This document shows, one piece after another, positions 6,754 to 26,900 of a DNA stretch of 29,170 bases. A model generated the notes under the pieces. The model did not search any database. It was given only the letters and a program-made list of their open reading frames with translations, and had not been told where the DNA came from. Made by a program: the position numbers and the translations under genes. Source of the DNA: a virus (Duplodnaviria; Caudoviricetes); IMG/VR virus record IMGVR_UViG_3300046003_005477, positions 1 through 29,170 of that record; one strand, written 5' to 3'. Numbering within the stretch: the stretch's first letter is position 1; every line of letters begins with the position of its first letter.

Positions 6754-7938
6754 ATGCACGTCGTAAAATACAAGTCCGTTTCCGTGAACGTCTATCCATG
6801 GCGGCACCCATCCGGAAGAGAGTATTGGCGGTTCAAGCAGGGAGGCAAGGACGTGACCCGCAGCACGCTCGAAAAAGCCAAGCGGGACGCGAAGAAGCAC
6901 GCTCAGACGATTTACCGTGGCAGTCTGGATCTAAACATCCTGGAAGCGGATGAAATCCGGAAACTGCAACGCATTGTCGAGGCGGGGGCACTCCAGCACG
7001 TCGAGGAGTTCCTGCTATGGCATTCCCGGAAAGCACCTAAGAAACTCGCCATTGACGCTTACACCGAATTTCTCGCTTTGAAGGAGAAGAACGCCGGTCG
7101 TTCGACTCAGAACGTCCGAACCATCCGAAAGCACGTCAAGCCGTTCATCGACATCCACGGGAAATCCGACCTCGCATCCATCACCGTGAAGGACATCGAG
7201 GATTATATGGAATCCAACCCGAAAAACAAAAACCGGACCCGCCGCAACATCAGGGCGTCGCTGGTGACGTTCTTCCGGTGGTGCCGACTCAGGGAATACC
7301 TCCCCGATGAACGCACGGCGGCGGAGAAGGCGGAGATCCCGATGGTGACTGACACGGTGCCAGAAACCTACACGCCCGACGAGCTGCGCGTCTTGCTGGC
7401 CAATGTTCGCCCGGATTTCCGGGCATGGCTCGCGGGCGCCGCGCTGGCGGGCATCAGGACCGATGAGATTTGCCCGATCGCCGGGAGTCGGAAACCTCCG
7501 CTGGATTGGAGCGACATTGACTTCGAGCGCGATCAGATCGTTGTAAGCCCTGCCACGGCCAAGATGAAGCGCCGGAGGGTTATTCCCATGTGCGCGGCAC
7601 TCAAGGCGATCCTGCTGCCGCTCAGGAAGCCCCAAGGCCCCATGCACGCTACAATCGCCCCCACCCGGAGCGACGGCAAGAAGATCGTGGCAGAAACCGC
7701 CCGGCTGGGCGCATTCATCGGCGGATGGAAGGACAATGCCCTGCGGGCATCTTTCATTTCATTCCGGTGCGCCCTGAAAGGAATGGGCGTCACGGCCATG
7801 GAGGCCGGAAATTCGGAGGATGAAATCAAGAAGTCCTACCTGGATGCCAAGAGTCCCGCCGAAGCGGAGGCTTGGTTTTCAGTGTCCGCGTTTTCGCCGA
7901 TCACCGAACATTTACCGAACACAGCGAAAAAACCTTGA
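6754..7938 (+). CDS. int: prophage tyrosine integrase
   Basis: AGIRTDEI (R), AKMKRRR (K), NALRASF, AGNS, KSY (Y); followed by attP. Confidence 0.9.
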   Translation: MHVVKYKSVSVNVYPWRHPSGREYWRFKQGGKDVTRSTLEKAKRDAKKHAQTIYRGSLDLNILEADEIRKLQRIVEAGALQHVEEFLLWHSRKAPKKLAIDAYTEFLALKEKNAGRSTQNVRTIRKHVKPFIDIHGKSDLASITVKDIEDYMESNPKNKNRTRRNIRASLVTFFRWCRLREYLPDERTAAEKAEIPMVTDTVPETYTPDELRVLLANVRPDFRAWLAGAALAGIRTDEICPIAGSRKPPLDWSDIDFERDQIVVSPATAKMKRRRVIPMCAALKAILLPLRKPQGPMHATIAPTRSDGKKIVAETARLGAFIGGWKDNALRASFISFRCALKGMGVTAMEAGNSEDEIKKSYLDAKSPAEAEAWFSVSAFSPITEHLPNTAKKP

Positions 7939-8095
7939 TTCTATATGGTGGAGGCGAGGGGAGTCGAACCCCTCAAGGGGTGCTTCTTTACGTTTTGTAA
8001 AGATCGGTTTTGGCTTGTTTTTTAGGTGTTTTTCTCTGTTTTTCATCCCAACGAAACGTGAAGAATCCCGGCTTTCACAGAACATTTACCGAACA
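7903..8095 (-). other. attP: core (7946-7973) matches a tmRNA 3' end, flanked by arm-type repeats
   Basis: Reverse complement reads AGGGGTTCGACTCCCCTCGCCTCCACCA (T-arm, acceptor with U70, CCA); GAACATTTACCGAACA occurs at 7906-7921 and 8080-8095. Confidence 0.8.
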
Positions 8096-8274
8096 TTTTT
8101 AAGCACCGCCTTACAATCAATGCAGACGAGCTTTCCATTTTTCTCCATCGGTGTCCCGAATTTGCAAACCGGGCAGTCCGGCAAATCAGCGTAGGACTTC
8201 GGGGCGTAGAACGGCTGACCAGATGGCGAATGCGCGTCTTTTACCGTCGGAATGGATTCGAGTCCTTTTTTCAT
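8086..8274 (-). CDS. small zinc-ribbon protein
   Basis: CPVC...CIDC; ATGA-coupled to the upstream gene. Confidence 0.55.
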   Translation of the reverse strand: MKKGLESIPTVKDAHSPSGQPFYAPKSYADLPDCPVCKFGTPMEKNGKLVCIDCKAVLKNVR

Positions 8275-8453
8275 GGCTTTTTCAGTTTATCCCGGCAAAC
8301 CACCCTCCCGGCTGCGATTTCTCGGAGCAATGCGCGCCAACTCGGCCGGCCGGAATAGATTCCGGCGCGTGCGGTGGCGTTGCATTTTCTGGAGATCGCC
8401 AGCAATGATTTGATTTCGTCGGCGTCGAGGTCGATGGTGTGGCGTTTTTTCAT
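8271..8453 (-). CDS. small hypothetical protein (possibly RHH-like)
   Basis: ATGA overlap with the intI stop. Confidence 0.55.
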
Positions 8454-9415
8454 GCGGTTCTTCGTAAAGGGATAATATTTCTCGCTACTTCCGCATCCAG
8501 CGGGCTATCCACCGTCGTCTTGCCGGCGGTATGCAAGTAAAGCTGTGTTGTTTCCAAACTCGTATGGCCGAGCTGTTCTTGAATTGTTTTGATGTCCACC
8601 CCATCGCGCAGTAGGCCGGTGGCATAGCTATGGCGGAGCGCATGCGGGTTCACCCGTTGCGTGATGCCTTGCAGTTCCGCCGCCTCCTTTAGCGCCGTCA
8701 CCAGTCGTTTGTCAGTCGCATGCCAACGATCCGTCCCATGGACTTTCTGAGATGGAAAAAGCCAATACCATGGCAGCGTCCCAAAGGTTCGGCGGCCAAA
8801 CTTGCGCATCAGACTTTCCTCATTGTGCGGGCAGATGATGCCGCTTGCGCGGTCGCGCTCCCATTGCATCCGGCAGGCCATGATTTGTTGTTCCAGATCC
8901 GCCACCAGGAATTCAGGAATCCGCAGCGCGCGGGACTTCCCGCCCTTGGCCTCATAAATTGTCAACACCCGATCCTCAATCCGCACATCCTTCAGCCGCA
9001 GCGTCAGCATGTCGCTTTCGATCCGCATGCCGGTTCCTGCCAGCAGTCCCGCTTGCAATCGCGGCACCCTTGGCATGGTTTGCATCATGCCGAGGATTTG
9101 GCGCATCGTGAGCACCGAGCGCATTGGCTTCGATCGGTTGCGCTTCGGAAGATCAAATTCCCCAAACTCCTTCAGCAAAACTTTTTCATAGAAAAACTTC
9201 AGTGGATTCAAAGCGTGCCACACACTGTTCGATGAAATCTTTTTCACGCTGGCCAGGTGGTTCAGATAGTCTTGCACCCCGGTGATTTCTCCACGCTTCA
9301 TCATCCCCGCAAACTCCGCGATCGTCGGCCCGTAGGTTTTTCGAGTATTCCGAGCCAGCCCCGCATTCAGCGCAGCCGTTTCGAAAGCCTTCATTACTTC
9401 TTCAATCGTTCTCAT
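8450..9415 (-). CDS. intI: integron integrase
   Basis: Catalytic R (GMRIES), K (AKGGKSR), HALRH, LGH, Y (TQLYLH); IntI-specific insertion SLMRKFG...WYWLFPS...RWH; C-terminal SPLD; adjacent attC array. Confidence 0.92.
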
Positions 9416-9444
9416 CGGATCGGATTTGTGGTTATAGACACTTA

Positions 9445-9470
9445 TTGGTTCCTATAATTAACTGTTCTGT
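9445..9470 (+). other. attI-1 (array 1)
   Basis: TAATTAACT-GTTCTGT, 49 nt from the intI start; its R box is complementary to R'' ACAGAAC of the first attC. Confidence 0.8.
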
Positions 9471-10183
9471 GTATGAAATGGGAGCACGTCCTGCGCGAGA
9501 CGAGCGGCGGCGATTTCGCAATAGCGTTCCTCCCGCTCGATGAGCACGGCGCGTTTCCCGAGATTCTTTGCGGCGTGTCCCGTGGTGCCGGAGCCTGCCC
9601 ACGGGTCGAGGATGGTTTCCACGTTCCCCGCTTGCTGGATGCACCATTGCATCAGCCCCAGCGGCTTTTGCGTCGGGTGTTGCGGGTTGCTGTCCGAGCG
9701 GCATCGGTGGTGTTTTGCTGGCCCTGGGATATTCGTGAAGGCGATTTCCGCACTGCTTCGCGTTTCCAAGTGCTCCACATGAGGCTTTTGCCACATCAGG
9801 AACTTTTTGTGAGGCGGCAGCAGGTTGCACAAGTAGTTCATTCCCCAGATGATTTGCAGGGTGGCTTTCTCCATTGCGGCGGCGATGGCTTCCCCGTCGA
9901 TTTTTTCATCATCCCAGTTTCCTTTCCTCGCCATGCCATAGCGGCGAGTCGTCCTCGATCCGTCGAGAGCGTTCATTCCATACGGCGGATCTGTCAGCAG
10001 GAGGTCAAAGCTTTCCAGCATGGGCATGATTTCCCGGCAGTCTCCGTGATAGATCGTCACGTATTCGTCGCGGTAGAACGGCACCGGCAACACAGAACAA
10101 GGCATCGCTCCTAACAGCCCACCGCCCCGCAGTTCAGCGGTGGCGTGGCTAGGAGGCTCAGGGAGTGGCGGAGTGGCGTTCAC
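9458..10183 (-). CDS. cassette 1: DNA methyltransferase (N6/N4, beta class)
   Basis: TDPPYG, HPTQKP, LDPWAGSGTT. Confidence 0.9.
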   Translation of the reverse strand: MNATPPLPEPPSHATAELRGGGLLGAMPCSVLPVPFYRDEYVTIYHGDCREIMPMLESFDLLLTDPPYGMNALDGSRTTRRYGMARKGNWDDEKIDGEAIAAAMEKATLQIIWGMNYLCNLLPPHKKFLMWQKPHVEHLETRSSAEIAFTNIPGPAKHHRCRSDSNPQHPTQKPLGLMQWCIQQAGNVETILDPWAGSGTTGHAAKNLGKRAVLIEREERYCEIAAARLAQDVLPFHTQNS

Positions 10184-10211
10184 GGGCTGTAGGAGGATTT
10201 ATGCGTTCTGG
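10092..10211 (+). repeat. attC 1.1
   Basis: R'' ACAGAAC; L boxes CTCCTA(A)CAGCCC / GGGCTGTAGGAG with an extrahelical base; R' GTTCTGG. Confidence 0.85.
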
Positions 10212-10936
10212 CCACGGAATAGATCGCCTTGCGCGAGTTCGCGCTTGATCCGTTCCACGGCGTTTTTGAAGTGTTCCGGGTCTTTCTCGATGCCAATGGC
10301 TTTCCGCCCGGTGCGGATTGCGGCGATGATCGTTGACCCGCTGCCCATGTATGGGTCGAGCACGGTTGCACCTTCCGGCACCTTGGCTTTGTCCATGCAC
10401 CACGCCATGAGCGCCACGGGTTTCTGCGTCGGATGAACGCGGGTCATCGTTTCCCCCGCCATGCTCAAGTCACGCTTGCAGTAGATTCCATGCCCGCCCT
10501 TCATCCACGCTTCCTCAGCATCACTCAGGAACGATCCGAAAGCTGCATCCATTCGCTTGATCCAGATCAGTTTGGTTCCCACTGGCAAGCGTGCGCCGAA
10601 GTGATTGGAGCCGAAGAGAACCACCTTTTCCCATGCGAGCCAAGGCGACGGGTCGAAGGGCTTGTCATCGTCGATGATGCCTTTCGCGTAGATCCTTGGA
10701 TTCTTCGGGCGGCGTTTTTGGCTGGCTTCACTTCCACCCTTGAATCGGGCGTTTTCACACGGCCATGCCATCCCATATGGCGGGTCACTTATCACGGCAT
10801 CCACGCCTTGCAGCGTCGGCGCAATGTCCATGCAGTCGCCCAGCCACACCTCAACCCCAAGAGCCAGAACAAGACGCTGCATGGAACGCCGAGGAGCGTC
10901 CTTGTCGAGTTCGGGCTGTAATTGGTCGGCGTCCAT
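10199..10936 (-). CDS. cassette 2: DNA methyltransferase (N6/N4, beta class)
   Basis: SDPPYG, HPTQKP, LDPYMGSGST. Confidence 0.9.
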   Translation of the reverse strand: MDADQLQPELDKDAPRRSMQRLVLALGVEVWLGDCMDIAPTLQGVDAVISDPPYGMAWPCENARFKGGSEASQKRRPKNPRIYAKGIIDDDKPFDPSPWLAWEKVVLFGSNHFGARLPVGTKLIWIKRMDAAFGSFLSDAEEAWMKGGHGIYCKRDLSMAGETMTRVHPTQKPVALMAWCMDKAKVPEGATVLDPYMGSGSTIIAAIRTGRKAIGIEKDPEHFKNAVERIKRELAQGDLFRGQNA

Positions 10937-10952
10937 GAGCTAGGCGTTCGTC
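10864..10952 (+). repeat. attC 1.2
   Basis: R'' CCAGAAC; CATGGA(A)CGCCGA / TCGGCGTCCATG; R' GTTCGTC. Confidence 0.9.
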
Positions 10953-11254
10953 TGATAATGAATGCACCCAAAGTCCGGCCCCGTGATGAGTTCGCCTGTG
11001 CAACCTCCTTCGTCGCACGTCGATACTCCGTCGCGCCGCATCTTGCGGTTGTCGCGTTTGCCGTAAGTCGGCTGAATCACCATTGGATGCTGGCAGTATT
11101 GAAGTTGGATTCCGTCTTCCGTGTGACCAGTTTGCCACAACTTACCCGGTTCGCCCCAGAAACGACAAGACGAACAAGTCACTCCTGGACAACCCTCACC
11201 AGTCTCCTGTTTGAGTTCGGTTTCGGGCTTCGATGTATCATTTTCGGTTTGCAT
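10940..11254 (-). CDS. cassette 3: Cys-rich hypothetical protein
   Basis: CSSCRFW...YCQHP...TGPDFGCIHY. Confidence 0.7.
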   Translation of the reverse strand: MQTENDTSKPETELKQETGEGCPGVTCSSCRFWGEPGKLWQTGHTEDGIQLQYCQHPMVIQPTYGKRDNRKMRRDGVSTCDEGGCTGELITGPDFGCIHYQTNA

Positions 11255-11301
11255 AGTGTTTTAGTGGTTAGCGGTGAGGGTGCCAGAGCTAGGCGTTCAT
11301 G
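11169..11301 (+). repeat. attC 1.3
   Basis: R'' GACGAAC; CTGG(A)CA(A)CCCTCACC / GGTGAGGGTGCCAG; R' GTTCATG. Confidence 0.85.
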
Positions 11302-11305
11302 GCCT

Positions 11306-11494
11306 TCACTTCGGGCGTTTTTTGGTGGCACGGAGTTCCCGAAGAGCGCCTTCCTGCATCCAACGATGCGGGACGTTCCGTCCGGTTTCCCATGCTGTGA
11401 TTTGCCCCTTGCCGAGGCCGAGCAAGGCTTCCGCCCCGGCCTGTGTCAGGCCGAGGCGGTCGCGCTCGCTTTTAAGTTGGTCGGCGAAGCTCAT
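11306..11494 (-). CDS. cassette 4: XRE-family HTH protein
   Basis: LKSERDRLGLTQAGAEALLGL...AWETGRNVP. Confidence 0.8.
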   Translation of the reverse strand: MSFADQLKSERDRLGLTQAGAEALLGLGKGQITAWETGRNVPHRWMQEGALRELRATKKRPK

Positions 11495-11688
11495 GCTGTT
11501 TTGACGGTGACGCTTTCTCCGTTTGCACCTTCGACCGTGACGGACGTTGGGCGGTTTTGGATTCCGGTGATCTTGGAGAAGATCTTGTGCTTGCCCTTGG
11601 AGTCGAAGCCCTCGGAGGCGAGGAGTGAGCGGAAGCCGGCGGCGGTGTGCTTGGTGACTTGCTTGGCGATGTAGGATTCGAATTTCAT
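11491..11688 (-). CDS. cassette 4: small hypothetical protein
   Basis: MKFESYIAKQ...; ATGA overlap with the HTH gene. Confidence 0.6.
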   Translation of the reverse strand: MKFESYIAKQVTKHTAAGFRSLLASEGFDSKGKHKIFSKITGIQNRPTSVTVEGANGESVTVKTA

Positions 11689-11734
11689 TTTCTTGGTTGG
11701 TTTGTTGTTGGTGTTGCTCAGTGGCAACACGCAC

Positions 11735-11785
11735 AACTTACGAGATTCTCGCACAAGGTCAATATTTATTTTACGAGATTCTCGT
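11735..11785 (-). promoter_or_regulatory. cassette 4 internal promoter with two palindromic operators
   Basis: TTGACC-16 nt-TAAGTT on the minus strand; CGAGA-N-TCTCG palindromes at 11741-11751 and 11774-11784. Confidence 0.65.
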
Positions 11786-11810
11786 TTTTATTCGGGCGTC
11801 CATTTTCGGC

Positions 11811-11897
11811 CATGAACAAGACGCTGATGACAAGCGCCGGAAGCGCCCTGTCAGGAATCGGAGTCTTGCGCGGCGCTGTCATAGCTCAGCGTTAGCC
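11811..11897 (+). repeat. attC 1.4
   Basis: R'' CATGAAC; ATGACA(A)GCGCCG / CGGCGCTGTCAT; R' GTTAGCC. Confidence 0.9.
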
Positions 11898-12121
11898 TCA
11901 GAGATTTCATCCCACAGGGAGGGCGGTAGCCATATGTCGTTATCCTTTGCCTCAAAGGCGTCTCCCGCCGTGAAGACGAGTCTGATTTCCCTCCCATCAA
12001 TGGACCGCAAGAACTCGTCCAGATACTCCCGCTCGTCGAGCGGGAGGGCGGCGCGTTCGTGTGGTAGTGCTTCGTCGTATAGGGCGATCAGCCCGGTTTT
12101 CATTCGTGCGTTCATAATCAA
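11879..12121 (-). CDS. cassette 5: hypothetical protein
   Basis: 80 aa ORF filling the cassette; its stop lies inside attC 1.4. Confidence 0.65.
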   Translation of the reverse strand: MIMNARMKTGLIALYDEALPHERAALPLDEREYLDEFLRSIDGREIRLVFTAGDAFEAKDNDIWLPPSLWDEISEANAEL

Positions 12122-12125
12122 GAAA

Positions 12126-12217
12126 GGCTAACAAGTGGATGCTGGCAACGGCGGGAAGTTGCCTGTTTGGTTTATTCGGAGTCCAGCGCCCGCCGCGCCA
12201 GATCCTTGTCGTTCTAC
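12126..12217 (+). repeat. attC 1.5
   Basis: R'' GGCTAAC; CTGGCAACGGCGGG / CCCGCCGCGCCAG; R' GTTCTAC. Confidence 0.85.
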
Positions 12218-12252
12218 CGAGAAGGGATCGGACCTTCCCGCGTAGATCGTGA

Positions 12253-12480
12253 TTACCAGCGTTTGCTTTTCTTCGGGCCGCTCATGAGTGCTGCGATCAG
12301 CGCGATGATTCCCACGATTGCGATGATGCCGAGAACCAGTCCAAGGCTGATCAAGATCGGCGACAATACCCACCACCACGACCATGCAATGACATTGCAG
12401 AGTTTCAGGGTGATGAAGACGATGGTGAGGAGACCGGCGAAGCCGATTCCTCCTGATGTGCTGCTATTGGTGTTACTCAT
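12253..12480 (-). CDS. cassette 6: small phage membrane protein
   Basis: GGIGFAGLLTIVFITLKL..VIAWSWWWVLSP motif; the frame stays open upstream into attC 1.6 (to 12534). Confidence 0.8.
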   Translation of the reverse strand: MSNTNSSTSGGIGFAGLLTIVFITLKLCNVIAWSWWWVLSPILISLGLVLGIIAIVGIIALIAALMSGPKKSKRW

Positions 12481-12511
12481 TTTTTCGGTGTTTTGGGGTG
12501 ATTCGGAAGAG

Positions 12512-12613
12512 GTAGAACAAGGGAGTGATGGCAACGGGAACTAGCCGTCGATGTCGTTTGAGTTATCGGAGTCCTGCGCGGCTAGTTCCCGCGCCATACC
12601 CCCAGCGTTCTGC
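12512..12613 (+). repeat. attC 1.6
   Basis: R'' GTAGAAC; ATGGCAACGGGAACTAGCCG / CGGCTAGTTCCCGCGCCAT; R' GTTCTGC. Confidence 0.9.
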
Positions 12614-12798
12614 GGAAAAGTATCGCGCCACGCCCAGACATGGGCGGCGTGTTTCCGTTGTGCTTTTGAGATTCCAGACGAGTCCGTGAATGTTACAGGG
12701 TCATCCATTCTTTCGCGCCAGTAGGCGATCCAGATGGAATGCCAAAGACGCAGAACAAGTCGCGGCAGGACAACCGCCCATTTGCTTTTCAATTTCAT
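12541..12798 (-). CDS. cassette 7: hypothetical protein
   Basis: Starts in attC 1.7 and stops in attC 1.6. Confidence 0.55.
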   Translation of the reverse strand: MKLKSKWAVVLPRLVLRLWHSIWIAYWRERMDDPVTFTDSSGISKAQRKHAAHVWAWRDTFPQNAGGMARELAAQDSDNSNDIDG

Positions 12799-12846
12799 AT
12801 CGTTTTCCCTTCATGCGCGGCGGTGCCTGCGCTTTTTGCGTTCGGC
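12750..12846 (+). repeat. attC 1.7
   Basis: R'' GCAGAAC; GCAGG(A)CA(A)CCGCC / GGCGGTGCCTGC; R' GTTCGGC. Confidence 0.88.
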
Positions 12847-13205
12847 AGAGATGAAGATCCGCAGATGAAGCATGTCCCATCCATGGCTCGGCTGAAGTTG
12901 CAAACATGTTCGCGCAATTTGCGCTCGCGTTGTTCCGTCACCGTTTCTGGTTGGCGGATTTTCACCCACTCCCCGCATTCCGGCCCACGCTCCTTCCAGA
13001 CTTGGAGTGAGCGCATGACTTGTCGTGCTTCAACTTTCTGCGCCATGTATCGGCTTTGATCGTCATCCGCGCCGTAGGCGAGCACCTGCATAATTTCCCA
13101 GCGGAATGACGGAGCGCCACGCCACCAGTAGAATCCGGGAGCATCGGGCCAGCCGAACAAGGCATCGCTGCCAACCGGCACTATCTTTTCAGTTTCTTTG
13201 CTCAT
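12795..13205 (-). CDS. cassette 8: hypothetical protein
   Basis: WPDAPGFYWWR motif; starts in attC 1.8 and stops in attC 1.7. Confidence 0.65.
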   Translation of the reverse strand: MSKETEKIVPVGSDALFGWPDAPGFYWWRGAPSFRWEIMQVLAYGADDDQSRYMAQKVEARQVMRSLQVWKERGPECGEWVKIRQPETVTEQRERKLREHVCNFSRAMDGTCFICGSSSLPNAKSAGTAAHEGKTI

Positions 13206-13249
13206 GGTCGTTTCATTTGCTGCCGGTGGCAGGATTTTTGTCGTTCATT
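13152..13249 (+). repeat. attC 1.8
   Basis: R'' GCCGAAC; CTGCCA(A)CCGGCA / TGCCGGTGGCAG; R' GTTCATT. Confidence 0.88.
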
Positions 13250-13291
13250 TCACTGGAAGAGAGGCGGGGGAAGAACCCCCGCCCGGTCGCA

Positions 13292-13585
13292 TCATGCGGC
13301 ATACCATCCGCCATTCCGCTTCGTGAACCACAGCACCCGCATCGAGCGGCTGACGATGGCGTAGCGGTTTGCGCCGTCGTAGTAGCGGACTTCGCCGCCC
13401 TCATTGCGCTTGTCCAAGTGGCCAAGGTCTTTGGCACCAAGAGCGCGGCGGGCTTTCTCTTGCTTGTCCGAGTGGCGATCCATTTCCTTGAGTTGCTTGT
13501 CGGTGGCAAAGATTGTTCCGATTCCGTTTTCTTGGATACGGTTTCCGTTGATGATTGCTGAGTTGATGATGGTTTCGAGTTGCAT
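13292..13585 (-). CDS. cassette 9: hypothetical protein
   Basis: 97 aa ORF divergent from an HTH gene. Confidence 0.6.
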   Translation of the reverse strand: MQLETIINSAIINGNRIQENGIGTIFATDKQLKEMDRHSDKQEKARRALGAKDLGHLDKRNEGGEVRYYDGANRYAIVSRSMRVLWFTKRNGGWYAA

Positions 13586-13686
13586 TGCAGTGGTTGGTTG
13601 ACGGCGTTACTCTGTCCGCATTGCAGACACTTGGCAAGGATTATTTTCTGCATTGCATACTTTTTTTTATCGGGTATGGTTTGCCC

Positions 13687-13866
13687 ATGACCTTCGCCGA
13701 ATCGCTTGCCGAGTTTTCCGCCGCCCAGATCGTCGCCGCCCTTGGATGTCCCCGACAGACGGCCTATGCGTGGCTTGATGGCACGCGCCAGCCCCCCGAA
13801 TGGCAGCAAGCGCTTTTCCTTGCGGCGATCCGTCGGCACGCGAAGAGAAGAGATGCCGGAAGATGA
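13687..13866 (+). CDS. cassette 9: small HTH protein
   Basis: AAQIVAALGCPRQTAYAWLDGTRQPP; TTGCAT...TATGGT promoter just upstream. Confidence 0.7.
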   Translation: MTFAESLAEFSAAQIVAALGCPRQTAYAWLDGTRQPPEWQQALFLAAIRRHAKRRDAGR

Positions 13867-13870
13867 CGGC

Positions 13871-13992
13871 AGAGAACAAGACGGTGATCCCGATGGAGAC
13901 CCGCCCCGAGTCAGGCTTTCAGTGGTGGCTATCATGATTTTTGGTGTGGCTGGCTGGCGCTCCCGTCTCCACGGGATACCTCTGCGTTCGGC
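13871..13992 (+). repeat. attC 1.9 (last of array 1)
   Basis: R'' AGAGAAC; ATCCCG(A)TGGAGAC / GTCTCCACGGGAT; R' GTTCGGC. Confidence 0.85.
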
Positions 13993-14379: not shown

Positions 14380-15986
14380 ACGCCATGGCCCTTGACCCAT
14401 CCGATTACGATTTCGAGCCTGAAAACGCCCAACCACCCAAGGACGACCTGCCGGATTACAAACCGCCATCTTCACCCCTCCGCCTAGTTCAGCCCGCCAC
14501 CGAGCCAAACCCGCCCCCGCATTCGGTAGGAAGTGAGAAGTCTATCCTCTCCCTCTACTGGGCATGGCCGGAAACTCGACCAGCGATCCAGCAAGCAGGC
14601 GTTTCCGAGGATCATTTCTATTCTCCCGGAAACCGGGTAATATGGAATGCTCTCGCAGCTCATCCCGACGCCGACCTCCCGTTGCTCGCTCAACGCCTGC
14701 TCGACTCCGGTCAACTCGACCGGGCAGGCGGGGCTGCATCCTTGGCTGATATTTACAGTTATGCGCTGCTCCCTCAGTGTCTTGACCAGCATCTTCAGAT
14801 CCTCGCCGAGAAATCAGCCGCGCGGTCAGCTATGACAGCATCGCGTAAGCTCATCGACGACCTCGAAGCCAGTCCCGGCGAGTCCGCAGAAATCCTCTTG
14901 CGCGCCGTCACCAGCCTCAAGGACATCGCAGACGCTGCTGGGTCCACGTCCCCGTTACTCGCTCGCGCCTACGCTCTTCAATACTCACCATTCGCCCGAC
15001 CTCCCGCCGACGAGGTTCTCATGCAAATCGGCCAGGCACCCATTGCCGCCCGTGGAAACCTCACCGTCCTGCAAGGCAAAGCCAAGGTCGGCAAGTCTGC
15101 GGTCGTCGCCAGCATCCTCGGCGCAGCCCTGCGTGGCAGATTCCAAGCCAAGGGCGACACGCTGGGCATTGACTGGACAGCGGATCGCCACACCGGCGCG
15201 GTGATCCACCTCGACACCGAGCAATCCCCTGCCGACTGGTGGGCGCTCGTCACCCGCGCATTCGCCCGCAGCGGCAACAAACAATTCCTCGACCGGTTGG
15301 TTTCGATTCCTCTCGTCCAGTTCAGCCGGCGCGATCGTTTGGCGATCCTTGAATCCGTCATCGCCGACCAGATCCGCCAACGCGGCACGGTGGATCTGGT
15401 CATCATCGACGGCGTGGCCGACCTCTGCACCAGCCCAAACGACGAGGAGGAGTCTTTAGAGCTGGTCGCTAAACTCATGGCAATCTGCCACAAACACAAC
15501 GTGGCGATAGTGTGCATCCTCCACGAAAACCCCGGCACCGATCAGGGAAAAACTCGTGGGCATCTCGGGTCAGAACTCAACCGCAAAGCCTTCGCCAACC
15601 TCCGAATCGACAAGGACAAGGACGGCGTTTCGACTCTTTACGGCACCGATATGCGCAAGCGGGACATCCCTCAGAATCAGGGCGTTTGCTTCGTCTGGAA
15701 CGATGAGGAACACATGCACACGGTCATTGGATCAGCCCGTGAAGTTGAGGCCGAGCGCAACTCCGAGAAGTCTCAACGGTCGAAATCCCGCAAGCTGGAT
15801 CAGGACCGCGCAGGGCTCGAAGACATCTTTGGAGATGAAGAATCCATGGCATACTCGGAGCTTTGGCCTGCCGTCGTGGACCGATTCGCGGTCAAGGAGC
15901 GCATGGCCAAGAACAAAGTTTCGGAGTGGATCAAGGCGGGAGTCGTCGTCAAAAACGCATCGGGGGAATATGAAATCGGCCCGTGA
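14376..15986 (+). CDS. replicative helicase: DnaB-like N-terminal domain plus RepA/AAA_25 ATPase
   Basis: PPHSVGSEKSIL, GKAKVGKS Walker A, HLDTEQ, VIIDG, RGHLGS motifs. Confidence 0.85.
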   Translation: MNAMALDPSDYDFEPENAQPPKDDLPDYKPPSSPLRLVQPATEPNPPPHSVGSEKSILSLYWAWPETRPAIQQAGVSEDHFYSPGNRVIWNALAAHPDADLPLLAQRLLDSGQLDRAGGAASLADIYSYALLPQCLDQHLQILAEKSAARSAMTASRKLIDDLEASPGESAEILLRAVTSLKDIADAAGSTSPLLARAYALQYSPFARPPADEVLMQIGQAPIAARGNLTVLQGKAKVGKSAVVASILGAALRGRFQAKGDTLGIDWTADRHTGAVIHLDTEQSPADWWALVTRAFARSGNKQFLDRLVSIPLVQFSRRDRLAILESVIADQIRQRGTVDLVIIDGVADLCTSPNDEEESLELVAKLMAICHKHNVAIVCILHENPGTDQGKTRGHLGSELNRKAFANLRIDKDKDGVSTLYGTDMRKRDIPQNQGVCFVWNDEEHMHTVIGSAREVEAERNSEKSQRSKSRKLDQDRAGLEDIFGDEESMAYSELWPAVVDRFAVKERMAKNKVSEWIKAGVVVKNASGEYEIGP

Positions 15987-16104
15987 ACGCCTAAATCTTC
16001 CCACCATGACCTTCTCTGCCACTCTGCCGCGCCTTGCGCTTCCTAACGAAAAACCCGCTCCGAACTCGGAGCGGGTCATGGTTGTGTGCGGCGTCTTGTT
16101 GAGT
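15982..16104 (-). repeat. attC 2.2 (last of array 2)
   Basis: Minus strand: R'' ACTCAAC, ACCATGACC / GGTCATGGT stem, R' GTTCACG overlapping the helicase stop. Confidence 0.75.
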
Positions 16105-16113
16105 GTCTTTGGG

Positions 16114-16347
16114 TTAGGCGAGCGGTGCGAGCGCACGGAGTGCCAACGTGGACGGCATCCGGCCAGACTCCCAACCCTCGACGGTGCGGCGGGAAACCCC
16201 GATCTCGTCTGCGAGCTGCTGAGTGGTCAATCCGGCCTTCTCGCGGATCGCTTTGATGCCGGGGCCGTAGTCCATGACGGACCCGTCATCCGCGAGGATG
16301 ACGGGCTGGCCATAGGGACTGGATGGGTGATGGGTGGTGACTCTCAT
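16114..16347 (-). CDS. cassette 2.2: XRE-family HTH protein
   Basis: IKAIREKAGLTTQQLADEIGVSRRTVEGWESGR. Confidence 0.85.
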   Translation of the reverse strand: MRVTTHHPSSPYGQPVILADDGSVMDYGPGIKAIREKAGLTTQQLADEIGVSRRTVEGWESGRMPSTLALRALAPLA

Positions 16348-16350
16348 GGC

Positions 16351-16704
16351 TTAGGCAAAAAGGCTATTGGCTTTGTGATCGTCGGCCTCAAACGCTGCCT
16401 TGATCTCATCGGCATTGGCTTCGGCTTCGGCCCACTCGACAAAATCGGAGTAAGCGGCCTCGCCGATCATGCAGTTGGTAAAATTGTGGGACATGCGCTC
16501 ATTGTTGCCGTCGTAGATGTCACCGTCCTCGTCCAACGAGATGTATGCGATATCACTTGCTCCGCACTTGATGAGGACCGCAACGCTGCTGTCGTTGTAT
16601 CCCTGGATGCACCAAGTCCAGTCGCCCTTGAGGGACTTGACCCAGTTGCGGGAGCCGTAACGAGGGGTGGAGGTGGTCTTGCTGATTTTGATGGTCGTTG
16701 TCAT
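16351..16704 (-). CDS. cassette 2.2: hypothetical protein
   Basis: MTTTIKISK...; preceded by an A/C-rich leader and a TGCGTAAAA / TTTTACGCA inverted repeat. Confidence 0.65.
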   Translation of the reverse strand: MTTTIKISKTTSTPRYGSRNWVKSLKGDWTWCIQGYNDSSVAVLIKCGASDIAYISLDEDGDIYDGNNERMSHNFTNCMIGEAAYSDFVEWAEAEANADEIKAAFEADDHKANSLFA

Positions 16705-16835
16705 GGTCTTGGTTGTTTTGGTGGTTTGGGTAGTCGCGTCGTGCAACTGGGAAGACAATACGCACGGTGCGTAAAAACAACAAGCTTTATTTTACGCAAA
16801 ATGCGTAATTCTTTTTTCCGCCCCGAAAGGGGTCC

Positions 16836-16924
16836 ACTCAACGCTGATGGTCTGGGACGGCGGACGTTGGACGCCGATTCCAAGTGAGACGTTCCCCGCC
16901 GTTCCCAGCACCTACTTGTTCAGC
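16836..16924 (-). repeat. attC 2.1
   Basis: Minus strand: R'' GCTGAAC; CTGGGA(A)CGGCGG / CCGCCGTCCCAG; R' GTTGAGT. Confidence 0.88.
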
Positions 16925-17034
16925 TCTTTTGGGGTGGTGTGAAAATAAACGAAGAAATATTGAAAAGCGTGTTGACGGAATCAAAAGGAAAGGGTATCTC
17001 TATTCACGTAAGCGAAAGCGAACCCCAAAACAAA

Positions 17035-17310
17035 ATGACAACCACAATCGAAATCGGAACTCAGGTCGAAAGAATCGCCAGTGACTACACCAACGGACGC
17101 AAGGGCGAGGTGATCGAAATCAACGAAGGCCGCGCCCGCGTCGCTTGGAGCGACTCACCCCGCACATGGGTGAAGTTCTCAGCCCTCAAGGTGATCGACC
17201 AAAAAGTGATCGCCGGGCCATGGAGCGAAACCCCAAACATGAAGAGCCACAAAGCAGCCCGCACCGTGACTCTCGCAGACGGAACCACCTACCGGGAATA
17301 TCGGAAATGA
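17035..17310 (+). CDS. cassette 2.1: SH3/KOW-like small protein
   Basis: IEIGTQVER...GEVIEI...ARVAW...TWVKFSALKV; TTGACG-17 nt-TATCTC upstream. Confidence 0.65.
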   Translation: MTTTIEIGTQVERIASDYTNGRKGEVIEINEGRARVAWSDSPRTWVKFSALKVIDQKVIAGPWSETPNMKSHKAARTVTLADGTTYREYRK

Positions 17311-17483
17311 AACCAACAAGAGGAGGCCCCCGAAAGGGGGCCGGGCGGAAGCCGACAGGCCGCACCGTCACAACGTCCAGCATCAACCTACCGCCCGAGC
17401 TATGGGACAAGCTGGATGCACTACGCGGGGAACTCACGCGCTCGGCATGGATCGCCGCCAAGATCAAGAATGCACGACTCTGA
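17307..17483 (+). CDS. cassette 2.1: ribbon-helix-helix (CopG-like) protein
   Basis: RGGPRKGAGRKP...SINLPPELWDKLD...RSAWI; ATGA overlap. Confidence 0.75.
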   Translation: MKPTRGGPRKGAGRKPTGRTVTTSSINLPPELWDKLDALRGELTRSAWIAAKIKNARL

Positions 17484-17489
17484 ATATCT

Positions 17490-17513
17490 GCTGAACAGTT
17501 AATTAAGCCGACC
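17490..17513 (-). other. attI-2 (array 2)
   Basis: Minus strand TAATTAACT-GTTCAGC shares 13 bp with attI-1; its R box is complementary to R'' of attC 2.1. Confidence 0.75.
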
Positions 17514-17560
17514 AGGCCGCGAATAACTACACCCCAAAAACCGCTACTCAAACGAACACA

Positions 17561-17745
17561 GTGCAATGGTGCAATATTGGTGCAATTTTTAGTGCAATAT
17601 TGCACCCCCGCCGGGTAGGTGCAATGCCCTTGGTGCAATGGTGCAATATTCCCCCCTCTTTAGAGGGGAATTGCACTATTGCAAATTGCACTACCGGCGA
17701 CAGCATCGGAAATGCTGGAAATTAGTTAGAACGAAAACATTGCAC
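17561..17745. repeat. iteron-like cluster, putative replication origin
   Basis: Seven GTGCAAT and four inverted ATTGCAC copies around a CCCCTCT / AGAGGGG hairpin in non-coding DNA. Confidence 0.65.
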
Positions 17746-18081
17746 TGCACCAACTCTCGACAACTCTCCACAACTCTCCACGACTCGACAAACCGACCAT
17801 GACCACCGGAATCCACATCATCCCGACCAACTCGACGGACCACAGAGATCCCCGCTGTTTGCGTCAGGATCAACGTGGCGGGCGTTTCGCGGATCTTGTG
17901 GGCGTCGGTGCCAAATCGGACTGGCTGACTCCGAAATCGATCCTAGAGATATTCAAACAAGCGTTTGAATATTGTCGCATCGTCGGATCATGATTCAAAA
18001 ATATGAATCCCCTCGCGCGCGCGGGTGCGGACGCGAAAATCCGTTCTTGCCTAAAAACTACATTTGCAAGTAATTTGCGTT

Positions 18082-21774: not shown

Positions 21775-21852
21775 CCCAGAATAGCTCAGCAATGAGAGAG
21801 CGGCGGAATTCTAAACCGCAGGTCGTCGGTGCAATCCCGACTTCTGGTCCCA
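21775..21852 (+). tRNA. tRNA-Arg (TCT), atypical
   Basis: D-stem GCTC/GAGC, anticodon arm GCGG..TCT..CCGC, T-arm GTCGG-TGCAATC-CCGAC, encoded CCA. Confidence 0.7.
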
Positions 21853-21887
21853 TTTTTAGCAACAGCGGGAAGCCCCGCAACCATAAT

Positions 21888-22315
21888 GGGCCACTTCCGG
21901 TTTCGACAGAACAGAAGGCCCTCACGATAGCATGCAGAGGTTGATCGGTTGGCCTCTTAAAAGCCGATCACGAATCCAAATGGCAAACATCAGTTCGCCC
22001 CGACCGTCGCAGAAGCCGACGCCATCCTTGCCCGTTTCGGTTATGCCGAAGCTGGTGAACTGGCCGCAGCCTAAGCCTCGGAAGGTAACGGTCCCCGGAA
22101 TGATCCGATAACTGGGAGACTTCAAAGCGGATCAAAAGACAGTCTGAGTCCTGCCGATGATTCAGTGGTGGAGGCTATTGGAAGAATCGAAAGATGAAGC
22201 CAGTCGCCCTCAAGGACTCCGGCCGCCTTGTAAAATCCGGGTTGGAGATAAGCATGTTTGAAGTTGTGAGGAGAATCAGTTCTGGACAGGGGTTCGACTC
22301 CCCTGTGGTCCACCA
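21888..22315 (+). ncRNA. ssrA: phage-encoded tmRNA
   Basis: Acceptor GGGCCAC / GTGGTCC-ACCA with G3:U70, 5' TTCGAC, T-arm AGGGG-TTCGACT-CCCCT, internal frame ending ELAAA-stop (22074). Confidence 0.9.
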
Positions 22316-23922: not shown

Positions 23923-23989
23923 TAACGGGCATCCCCGATAGGATGCAAACGACCGCCGGTGGATTCCGGCACCAACTCAATGAACACTC

Positions 23990-26900
23990 ATGGATGATGA
24001 AATTTTCCGCCAGAAAGGGCCAGGCGTTGCGCGTGGCGAAGCCGTCGATGCGAATCCGAGTGAACGGAGTGGTGGCGGAGGGTCCGGCACACCGATTTGG
24101 AAGTCGTTTATCACCAATGAATCCATCAACAAGCGGGACCGCGTAGCGATTGCCAACGAGCAGCGGGCGATCGCATCGAAGGACAACGAATCTTCCGCTC
24201 CCCACGAAACATGGGGAGGCGACAATGGCCGCCTACTGAGAAAAACCCGCAACGGCATCGAGCAGTTCGACGCGGAACTCTACACGGAAGATCCGAACGT
24301 CGGCGGATTCGCTCGCAAGAGTCTGTTTGACCGCGAGAAACGCACGGCGGCCGCCGAATACGACTCGCACGCTTTGCGGTTGGAAGATCCGGCGTTCAAG
24401 GCGAAGCAGTTGAGCAAGAAGGCTCGGGAGGACATCGAGCTGGAGGGTTCCGTGCTGGCGGAGACCGATCCTCGACACAAGCAGCTCAAGGCCCAACTCG
24501 TCGCCGACGACGAATACCGCGCCGAGCGCGCCGACTTGGAGCAGCGGAAATACGACGCCAAGGTCAAGGCGACGAATCTTGGCAACACCGACCATGAATC
24601 ATGGTGGTCAAGCCGCGAGGCACCTGCCCCGGTTGATCCGGTGCAGACCGCCGTTGCTCAGCGTGATGAAGCCGACGCCGCCGATCAGTCGGCGATGGAG
24701 GAAGAGAAAGCGTTAGGTCAGGAATTAGCTGGTGGAGTTCCCGCCGCTCGCTTGCAGGAAATTCAGGCGCGTCAGGCGGAAATCTCTCAAGCCCGCGCAG
24801 TGGCCGGCGAGAAGAAGGTGGAGGCGGGGCAGGCGATTGAGGGGGTGAAGGCCGCAGCGGAAAAAGAGAAGCCGTTTTTTGGAATGGGCGATACCGTTTC
24901 AGGCATTTGGGATGCGGTTAAAGGGCTTGGTGTCACTGCCCCTGCTGCATTTTACCAGTTAGTCGAGGGGATGGAACGCCCCGACACTTACTCTGAATCC
25001 GCCAAAGCCGCGTTCGCCGAGGCGGATGCGTTCAACAAGGAGATGCAGGCAAAGACCGCGGCGAATCAAGCGGCGGGAACAAGTTCATCGGTGGGTGAAA
25101 GTTTCCGCGAAGCTGGTCAAAGCCTTGGTTTCACGGCTGGAAGCATGGCCGCAGCAATTCCCGCTTCTATCGCCGGGGCAAAAGCGGGTGCCGCAACTGG
25201 CGCAAGTATTGCCGCAATCGCTGGCTTTGCCGGACCCCAAGCCGCAACTCCCGAAGAAATTGTAACCGTCCCCGTTGGTGCTGGCCTTGGCGGCCTTATT
25301 GGTGGCGGTGCCGCTGCTATGGCCGCGTCTGGAACAGCGGCCTATCGCATGGCCGGGGCGTCGTTCCTCAACGAATCATTCCAAGCCCTTGAAGCGGAGT
25401 CCATGCGTAAGAGCGGGCGGGCGATGAACGAGGAGGAAAAGCAATCGGCATACGAGTCTCTAATGCCTATCGCGCAGAATACCGCGCTTTGGGAAGCTGG
25501 CCCCGAGGCGGTCGGCAACGCCGTTTCTCTTGGCGCTGGTAAAATCATATTTGGGTTAGGTAAGCCACTCATGGCAAAATTCATGGCAACTGCTGGCGGA
25601 AAAATCGCCACAAAAGCCGGAGCTGCCGGAGCAGCGCTTGGAACCGAGCTTGCCACGGAAACCATCACGCAGGTTGAGCAATCCGCCGACCAACAGAAAA
25701 TGCAAGAAGTCGTTGCTGGACGTGATCCAAGCACGGTTTCCGCCAACTGGTCTGCTGGAGGCGTTGTCGAGGCGTTCAAAGAAGTTGCACCACAAACCCT
25801 TGCCCTCATGGGCTTAATGGGTGGTGCTGGCGGCGCTGTCAAAATTGCATCCAAGGGAGTTGATGCACTCAAAAGCACCAACGAAGGAGACGCAGCAGTC
25901 AAAGCGACAACCACAGCCCTCCGCGCCATCGACCCCGAAGCCCCCGCACCATCGGCGGATGAAGTGGTCAGTGCCGCGAGCATCGTGAATCCGAACCGTG
26001 GATTTGAAGGATTTGCCGAAGGCGTCCGGATGGAACGGGCGATGAAGATCATTTCGACGGAAGACGACGCATCGCTTGCTGCCGCTGAGGAGGCGCTGAC
26101 AGCCGCCAAGGCGTCAGGTGACACGAATGCAGTCACGCTCGCCGAAGAGGGCAAGGCGAAGGTGCAGGGACGAGCCGAGGGCGTCCGGGCGGTTCTAAAG
26201 ATCGCCGCTGGCAAGCGGTTGGAAGATTTGACTAAAGCCGAGCTGGCATCGCTTGGATTCAACGAGGGGGAAAAGGGAAAAACTCCCACCCCGATGTCCG
26301 ACGAGGAGCTGGCGAAAGTCGGGTTGGATGATATTCAGGTCACGTTGAGGGAAGATCCGGAGACGGAAGCCGTCGATCTAATCATCAGAGACGCCGCCAT
26401 CAAGCGGGTGACATCCATCCTCCCCGCCGCCGCCAACTTCGTCACGAACGAAGAGACGGCGATTGCAGGCGCGCAGAAGCGGAGGACTGAGGCGGCCGAG
26501 GCCGCGAAGGCCGCGAAGATTTCCGGGCAAGCCCCGGCACAACTTTCCACGGAGCAGCAGAATGGTGAGCAGGGAGATCCTGCTACGGGTTTGCAATTCC
26601 CCTTAGAAACAAATGCGCCCGTGGAAACATTTTTTGACGTGCCGGTCCGCACTGGTCCGCCCGTCCGAGTTCAGGCGAATTCGCCGCAGGAGGCTGAACT
26701 AGCCGTCGCTGGCATGTTCGCCCCGCATGAAAACGGCGTGTTGCCGAATCAGGCGGTGGCTGTCGCACCCGCCGTAACCGGAACTGAAAATGGAATACCA
26801 AATCAACCTGCCCCCCCTGCCGCCGGAGTCGCCGGAGGAAATGAAGTCCCGAATCCGGCAGCGGGAGTTCAGCCGTTGGTGGAGGGAGGTCCAGCGACTC

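Follow-up and report, generated by a model that had tools for sequence, protein, structure and literature searches.

Why should a phage carry an integron whose cassette genes read toward the integrase? The question is raised by the IMG/VR virus record IMGVR_UViG_3300046003_005477, the entire length of which (29,170 bases) is the window analysed here. Within it, the gene of an integron-type tyrosine recombinase, intI, adjoins an attI recombination site and an array of nine cassettes with attC hairpins (Table 1). Very probably this is a complete integron residing in a temperate phage, its cassette genes lying on the attC bottom strand, with shuffling at the G/TT crossover; the phage's own IntI is the likely catalyst, and the array is likely to be read toward attI and intI.

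The attI crossover lies 49 bases upstream of the intI start, at the head of the R box GTTCTGT (9464–9470), and is preceded by GTTAT at a distance of 33 nucleotides (nt), versus 32 nt for GTTAC in attI1 (counted by eye). The site is conserved upstream of 17 integrases of the clade described below, 40–60 nt from intI. A preliminary description had reported, besides attI, nine attC sites with their boxes and extrahelical bases, and all nine are recovered, with identical boundaries, by a covariance model (CM) built from 27 chromosomal attC sites of the host group (see below) without any sequence of the window; of 11 matches at E ≤ 1 in the 29 kb, the other two belong to a second array. Two of the nine are weak (E of 0.012 and 0.054, E-values being rough here). 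R and L boxes are present throughout, all nine sites share one polarity facing away from intI, and an extra base occupies position 4 of L'' on the expected arm in 9/9 (read by eye); in eight relatives, 39/39 CM matches are of one polarity. Folding energies are clearly better than those of shuffled sequences for four of the nine sites (z ≤ −2.7) and weakly so for two. Within-array identity (nt 8–37) is 0.47 in phage arrays versus 0.82 in host arrays; a strict L''/L' motif finds four of the nine sites, and blind folding of all AAC...GTT pairs was unspecific.

Cassettes 1–8 each begin with a 7-nt R box that is the exact complement of their own R'', as listed for all eight in the preliminary description, and cassette 9 has two mismatches. 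This circle signature, suggestive of entry as circles, is found in 45 of 51 distinct cassettes from 14 clade loci, and in 42 of 47 from nine loci where the sites are defined by CM. The complete integron of the preliminary description is confirmed, and its recombination polarity is regular.

The best NCBIfam family of the integrase is TIGR02249 (194 bits, E of 3.5e-57; XerD scores 111), and PF00589 is matched with an E of 5e-30. Its closest PDB relative, by sequence and by fold, is VchIntIA: the top three fold matches of the model (predicted local distance difference test score, pLDDT, 71.5; 57–68 in the insertion part) are all to 2a3v, with template modelling (TM) scores of 0.61–0.70. Residues ~187–235 align with the IntI-specific insertion near patch III of 2a3v, and the catalytic residues R131, K157, H258, R261, H284 and Y293 are invariant across 30 homologues. 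The earlier assignment to the IntI type stands on family, insertion and catalytic residues; the family score is taken up below.

A protein search with IntI returned 481 relatives, the best 120 at 70–100% identity. Thirty loci were fetched with their flanks, many too short to place, and 19 of them form a clade in a quick-mode tree (Shimodaira–Hasegawa-like approximate likelihood ratio, SH-aLRT, of 100), apart from IntI1 and 24 IntI of the host family. Among loci with long flanks, L004 neighbours an HK97-like head module; L005, L015 and L029, Mu-like transposase genes; L027, terminase and portal-type genes; and L003, L006, L009 and L021, phage replication genes. L029 adjoins host genes, and the surroundings of L030 are equivocal. 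A profile of the clade matches 3 of 401 host-family genomes. The clade is linked to phages, and to phages of unrelated types. The phage collection searched contains no close IntI relative (best match 40%, to IntI1). A sister-lineage IntI, 45% identical, lies in L094 (12431–14524, G203) with an attI and an antisense cassette resembling 3'-phosphoadenosine 5'-phosphosulfate (PAPS) reductase, 61% identical to cassette A of the sister phage described next; the region is prophage-like by inspection of open reading frames (ORFs).

A contig of a near-identical phage (L002) encodes an IntI identical to that of the window, shares 99.9% identity with the window along the left arm (9.5 kb) and has a single mismatch in 1,017 nt up to attI. 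Five nt past the crossover G of attI the two diverge, the array order being A, B, C, 4, 5, 7, 2, 8, 9 versus 1–9: cassettes 1, 3 and 6 are missing, attI is followed by three new ones, and cassette 2 has its place between 7 and 8. Every change falls on G/TT, with 5–8 nt common across each joint. Different first cassettes begin at the same G in L002 and the window, and again in L003 and L009, which have the same IntI sequence and differ from the first base past attI. Gene order at this locus is thus not invariant, and the related contigs with other cassette content that the preliminary description called for exist. By comparison of the arrays, cassettes are gained, lost and moved at the G/TT crossover; in a simple history, cassette 2 would have been excised and have re-entered at attI, as integrons do, the direction of change being inferred. 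Since units are deleted, moved and added exactly at recombination points in a near-identical phage, the phage is likely to reshuffle its own accessory genes.

Accessory modules of T4-type phages are shuffled through repeated stem-loops (promoter early stem-loops, PeSL; PMC2839356), and the data behind the array orders are all metagenome assemblies, so that homologous recombination between repeats, or misassembly at hairpins, has to be weighed as the source of the new orders. Both seem very improbable. The 5–8 bases shared at joints, all on G/TT, probably do not suffice for homologous recombination or for a misjoin of k-mers, hairpins within an array are 47% alike, and each new cassette brings its own complementary 7-mers. 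In addition, joints 2 to 8, 5 to 7 and 7 to 2 recur in separately assembled lake-metagenome runs (Logan contigs of runs X14, X16, X17 and X19; short side 70–255 nt), which may belong to one campaign, and both L002 and contigs from five runs lack cassette 6 at a clean joint (12209 to 12606). A joint of attI to cassette 3 in X16, with a short side of 26 nt, was not relied on. Loose contig ends at 9468, 11297, 12214, 12610 and 12845 reveal other cassettes behind the same crossovers. Single-cassette circle junctions were not listed in the contigs of eight runs, contigs being prone to drop rare forms.

Placed on the attC bottom strand are 10 of 11 cassette ORFs, so that nearly all read toward attI and intI, as had been described; the exception is a helix-turn-helix (HTH) ORF of 59 residues in cassette 9. 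Orientation was scored by a coverage rule with an ambiguous class, applied identically to phage and host and to signature-perfect cassettes only. The clade set comprised 14 loci, four duplicates and loci without attC being excluded, and the host set the 13 of 20 regions that yielded cassettes. Among 45 clade cassettes, 28 are antisense, one is sense and 16 are ambiguous; the 123 chromosomal cassettes of the host family divide into 3, 84 and 36. Each clade locus leans antisense and each host locus sense. The antisense orientation is phage-specific.

Could this be a bacterial integron captured by a prophage, its cassettes put in the wrong way by top-strand recombination? Captured chromosomal and class 1 integrons have been published in phages (PMC9892861), top-strand recombination happens at low frequency (PMC5027507), and L002 has one sense cassette of a bacterial-looking family. 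Wrong-way insertion of the kind discussed in PMC5027507, however, flips hairpin and gene together, and here only the gene is reversed: the hairpin polarity is canonical and crossovers fall in R'. The phage integrase moreover lies outside the group of host chromosomal IntI, attC identity is low and the cargo antisense, and promoter-facing cassettes had, according to the same 2016 paper, never been seen. Such a capture is hardly credible. With intI facing away, extrahelical bases on the R''–L'' arm and crossover in R', the cassettes were probably built with the gene reversed. The sense cassette of L002 (7934–8491) encodes 185 residues without a Pfam family, its look-alike clusters being mostly bacterial, and a few antisense cassettes sit inside host arrays (L081, L073); a two-way exchange between phage and host is possible.

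The reversed genes extend into their recombination sites. An ATG lies within the cassette's own attC in 20 of the 28 antisense clade cassettes, and the stop codon lies past the crossover in 23, that of cassette 1 being supplied by attI. A move therefore alters the C terminus: the methyltransferase of cassette 2 has 245 residues in the window and 258 in L002. The bottom frame is open to the crossover in 34 cassettes, and in 33 of these one of the open frames is that in which AAC forms a codon; 94% of 50 phage attC sites contain a stop in this frame. The attC would thus serve as a gene-expression joint, a role that the preliminary description had not noted: its bottom strand often gives the start codon and first 15–30 residues of its own cargo and also a stop codon to the gene that enters it, AAC at the crossover being translated as Asn. 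With this frame shared, most cassettes would be translatable in any position.

Promoters in the distal cassettes are the likely source of transcription toward attI and intI, as far as can be told from sequence motifs. Candidates in cassette 4 and unit 9 each accompany a palindromic operator and an HTH gene, and the −35/operator string of cassette 4 recurs in the first cassette of L012, where it is predicted to drive intI directly. A scan for a cassette promoter (Pc) upstream of attI gave no candidate, a TATAAT hexamer in the attI L-box region having no −35 match. Likely to be the last gene of the leftward unit is the 60-residue ORF whose start overlaps the intI stop. New cassettes would then enter at the predicted 3' end of the transcript just before intI, and the mobile cassette 4, bringing promoter and repressor, would reset the expression of everything between itself and intI.

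Several observations weigh against a regular integron worked in this manner by the phage. Three of the nine hairpins fold no better than shuffled sequences, and the bottom-strand energy bias seen in 101/124 host attC sites is lost in those of the phages (23/45). The integrase score of 194 bits falls below the curated TIGR02249 cut-off of 265, and, compared with VchIntIA, the loop preceding R230 lacks about six residues and H240 is replaced by W231. Cassette counts are non-independent within and between loci. Host cassettes favour the same frame in 9/12 open bottom frames, so that the frame bias is partly built into the site. The candidate promoters match only 3/6 positions in the −10 box, within the array the standard scan gave no leftward-strand promoter, and the model does not account for a promoter of the single sense cassette of L002. 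Finally, attI-plus-cassette units without a nearby intI exist: the second array of the window, a third site in the sister phage (G402), and L132, L138, L149 and L217.

These last units suggest that the host IntI may serve them, and bear on whether mobile cassettes are shuffled altogether by the host's chromosomal IntI, with the phage intI accessory or drifted to another job. We regard this as unlikely, albeit with some evidence in its favour: canonical IntI occurs in 152 of 401 host-family genomes, with attC of the same type; phage attI-plus-cassette units can lack intI within 1.5 kb; among 37 viral loci with two window attC arms, the one with intI in its 2.5-kb flank is the window's twin; and the low family score points the same way. 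Yet the phage intI is intact, stands beside a conserved attI in 17 clade loci and is under purifying selection in 6/6 pairs (nonsynonymous divergence, dN, 0.16–0.25; synonymous divergence, dS, at least 1.6 or saturated). It also moves with attI among unrelated phages, and the attI pattern was matched once in 52 host loci scanned, far from intI. The phage's own IntI is therefore rated the likely catalyst. The earlier proposal that the phage uses its integron to shuffle an early accessory operon is supported; in it, the reshuffling at G/TT is observed, and catalysis by its own IntI and transcription as an early operon stay inferred.

The second array (15982–17527), of two cassettes, missed in the preliminary description and absent from L002, faces the first across the replication genes. 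The R box of its attI-like site is the exact complement of the R'' of attC 16836–16924; its second cassette carries a 135-residue ORF and an HTH gene on the top strand of its attC; R' of the last attC contains the stop codon of the DnaB-like gene. Similar orphan units in other viral contigs carry antisense cassettes. A scan of viral contigs with the attI pattern gave 123 matches, 116 of them without a downstream attC of the window type; in L100 an attI nearly identical to that of the window lacks intI within 1.5 kb upstream.

Exchange is seen at a further boundary. In L002 the attC3 core is joined to cargo B, with identity beginning at GAAC and a one-base indel that keeps the in-hairpin ATG in frame, and a paralogue of cargo B lies behind the orphan third attI of the same sister phage with a different core (L222 3020–3560, G402). 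In viral contigs, cores 88–100% like core 6 head 18 scored loci with mostly unrelated cargo, and the arm of core 2 gives, in 15 of 18 viral loci, a long in-hairpin ORF starting MDAD or MHAD and fused to different proteins. In chromosomal integrons it is normal for one attC core to head many cargoes; the occurrence of a single cargo with several cores is more telling, and is known from few cases. Hairpin cores and cargo thus also appear to be exchanged at R'', and the route may be top-strand IntI cleavage or group IIC-attC introns (PMC7923331), both acting at this boundary. Tentatively, and at somewhat less than an even chance, verrucomicrobial phages could maintain an integron lineage of their own and use it as a kit for assembling genes, in which portable start/stop cores are joined to phage genes at R'', exchanged between cargoes and then shuffled at R' in a fixed frame. 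Top-strand R'' by R'' excision, as one example of such exchange, would then yield a perfect cassette in which one core is combined with the cargo following it. The birth of cassettes could on this reading be observed in phages, and phage and host arrays would trade cassettes in both directions.

Shared with class 1 and sedentary chromosomal integrons, as described in PMC4889954, PMC5027507 and PMC5371416, are the patch-III insertion of IntI, attI by the intI start, the R''/L''/L'/R' boxes and extrahelical bases of attC, the G/TT crossover, intI facing away and entry at attI. Unlike in those, the phage genes lie on the bottom strand, starts and stops are often outside the cassette body and the scan gave no Pc candidate; unlike host arrays, attC identity is low and the platform occurs in phages of unrelated types. 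Phage integrons as such have been published: Qi 2023 (PMC9892861) describes captured integrons and attC clusters that have no integron-integrase (CALINs) in phages, with methyltransferase cargo and phage attC sites that recombine with IntI1, the complete integrons there being captured Vibrio, Shewanella or class 1 elements. In the parts of its main text available, nothing is said of a phage-linked IntI clade, of an inverted logic of expression or of sister phages differing by shuffling. The TJE1 CALIN, analysed here, is canonical, with genes on the top strand. In Polaribacter phage P12002L (L267 29230–30059), for which those parts mention only 'divergent directions', complementary 7-mers flank methyltransferase gp35, which is encoded on the bottom strand of its attC and reads here as a bottom-strand cassette; this places the reversed layout in a cultured phage.

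Co-orientation of intI and cassette genes is also known from the inverted-integrase integrons of Treponema (PMC4889954), where intI is flipped onto the attC top strand; here intI is regular, on the bottom strand, and the cargo is flipped. The second array, with cassettes away from an integrase gene, resembles single attC sites lacking integron-integrases (SALINs) and the products of attC by attG insertion (Loot et al., 10.1101/2022.09.11.507474), but a complete site of the attI family, rather than a GWT attG, heads its cassettes. Stem-loop modules likewise punctuate the shuffled accessory genes of T4-type phages and can circularise (PMC2839356); there promoter/terminator repeats are swapped between similar copies, whereas here the hairpins are dissimilar, the crossover is a fixed 3 nt and a dedicated recombinase is present. 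Group IIC-attC introns insert at TTGT/T in bottom-strand R'' (PMC7923331), the core/cargo boundary here, but none of the 33 window proteins scanned, which do not cover every ORF, is an intron protein or reverse transcriptase. No description of bottom-strand cassettes in phage integrons was found in the literature searched, which left out most subscription journals and figures (further related work: PMC4792948, PMC8876359, PMC5737381, 10.1101/2022.02.06.479319, 10.1101/2025.02.12.637893). We judge the system to be a genuine variant of the integron that is adapted to phages, its cargo being reversed and its site-specific shuffling directly supported by comparison.

Integrons have been regarded as tools of bacteria, and a correct orientation of cassettes toward Pc as indispensable; the phage version would refit the machinery with reversed genes, and shuffling has left direct traces among phages that co-occur. 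Bacterial integrons carry anti-phage cassettes, of which the phage cassettes would be the mirror image. Phages would gain programmed variation of methyltransferase and other accessory genes, selection probably acting on DNA-modification cargo (the methyltransferases and a PAPS-reductase/SspD-like gene) against host restriction. Through the core/cargo exchange at R'', the origin of cassettes becomes open to testing, and all parts are of a size suited to the standard recombination assay in E. coli.

Family matches, which confirm the strand, identify two N6/N4 methyltransferases, one HTH_3 regulator and one phrog_1374 protein among the cassettes, and PADLOC gave methyltransferase and SspD matches only, for 3 of 14 proteins. 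Six bottom-strand ORFs match no Pfam or PHROG family, and the cargo, earlier called typical phage accessory genes, is therefore established as such in part only. Cargo similar to cassette 7 occurs in L217 behind another attI with another hairpin (by eye).

Table 1. Positions of the integron and associated features in the 29,170-base window (aa, amino acids)
Feature	Position	Strand	Details
Phage's own integrase	6754–7938	+	phrog_1; separate from integron
attP-like copy of tmRNA 3' end	7945–7973 (29 nt)	+	adjoins phage integrase
60-aa ORF	8271–8453	−	start overlaps intI stop (ATGA); no Pfam or PHROG match
intI, integron-type tyrosine recombinase, 321 aa	8450–9415	−	TIGR02249, 2a3v, catalytic residues
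attI	9431–9470	+	conserved site; GTTAT motif, TAATTAACT, crossover G/TT at 9464
attC1	10092–10211	+	
attC2	10864–10952	+	
attC3	11169–11301	+	
attC4	11811–11897	+	
attC5	12126–12217	+	
attC6	12512–12613	+	
attC7	12750–12846	+	
attC8	13152–13249	+	
attC9	13871–13992	+	
Cassette 1, N6/N4 DNA methyltransferase	9464–10204	gene on bottom strand	PF01555, E 5.5e-19
Cassette 2, N6/N4 DNA methyltransferase	10205–10945	gene on bottom strand	PF01555, E 1.1e-18; ATG inside attC2
Cassette 3, 104-aa Cys-rich ORF	10946–11294	bottom	ATG inside attC3
Cassette 4, 65-aa ORF, HTH_3 regulator, candidate leftward promoter/operator	11295–11890	all bottom	HTH_3/HTH_31
Candidate leftward promoter, cassette 4	11762		TTGACC, 16 nt, TAAGTT; relaxed scan, missed by stricter scan
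Cassette 5, ~80-aa ORF	11891–12210	bottom	
Cassette 6, 75-aa membrane ORF (12253–12480)	12211–12606	bottom	phrog_1374, E 8e-24
Cassette 7, 85-aa ORF	12607–12839	bottom	ATG in attC7, overlaps upstream ORF's stop (ATGA)
Cassette 8, 136-aa ORF	12840–13242	bottom	ATG inside attC8
Terminal unit 9, 97-aa ORF, candidate leftward promoter, 59-aa HTH ORF	13243–13992	97-aa ORF bottom, HTH ORF top	circle signature imperfect
Candidate leftward promoter, unit 9	13637		TTGCCA
Degenerate attC, second cassette of second array	15982–16104	−	partial CM match, E 0.02; circle signature exact
attC, first cassette of second array	16836–16924	−	CM E 2.4e-5; fold z −3.5
ORFs, first cassette of second array	16993–17310 and 17307–17483	bottom strand of attC 16836–16924	
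Second attI-like site	17490–17527	−	matches attI family pattern; crossover G/TT at 17496; no integrase gene

The element of the window is a tailed temperate phage, terminase, portal and head genes, integrase and attP all being present. A PHROG scan found terminase-like (partial match, E of 1e-9), Sak4, SSB, DnaB-like, integrase and excisionase-like genes, and the overlapping contig G403, 99.7% identical over 10.5 kb, supplies portal phrog_1216 and head phrog_240; no match to a major capsid family was obtained. A terminase-based search for sister phages returned near-identical contigs only. The habitat is freshwater, with matching Logan contigs from lake-metagenome runs. Beside the phage integrase, the 29-nt copy of a transfer-messenger RNA (tmRNA) 3' end has a match in 87 of the 101 genomes from the family to which G001, an Akkermansiaceae metagenome-assembled genome, belongs; it is 29/29 nt in three of four loci fetched, all four of which hold tmRNA genes. 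Because this attP-like copy matches tmRNA ends of that family, to which the search was directed, the host is probably a verrucomicrobium.

Between terminase and virion genes (21775–22315), the phage also has a tRNA-Arg(TCT) and a complete tmRNA gene of its own, with a tag peptide of unusual length, whereas the tmRNA 3' end copied in its attP is that of the host. An Rfam scan of the window gave tRNA and tmRNA only, Rfam itself having no attC family. The replication module is swapped between the near-identical phages (window 14429–17944, L002 2079–4233): the DnaB-like genes are only 67% alike and the regions downstream of them differ. A TGCAAT/ATTGCA repeat cluster in the intergenic region 17560–17800 could represent origin iterons, and a different repeat family, CCGCAAAG, follows the DnaB-like gene of L002. 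The virion region (23984–29170) contains very long ORFs of more than 1,700 residues, cut by the window end, and in L223 (536–10039) a virion-region ORF of 3,168 residues includes methyltransferase- and helicase-like segments.

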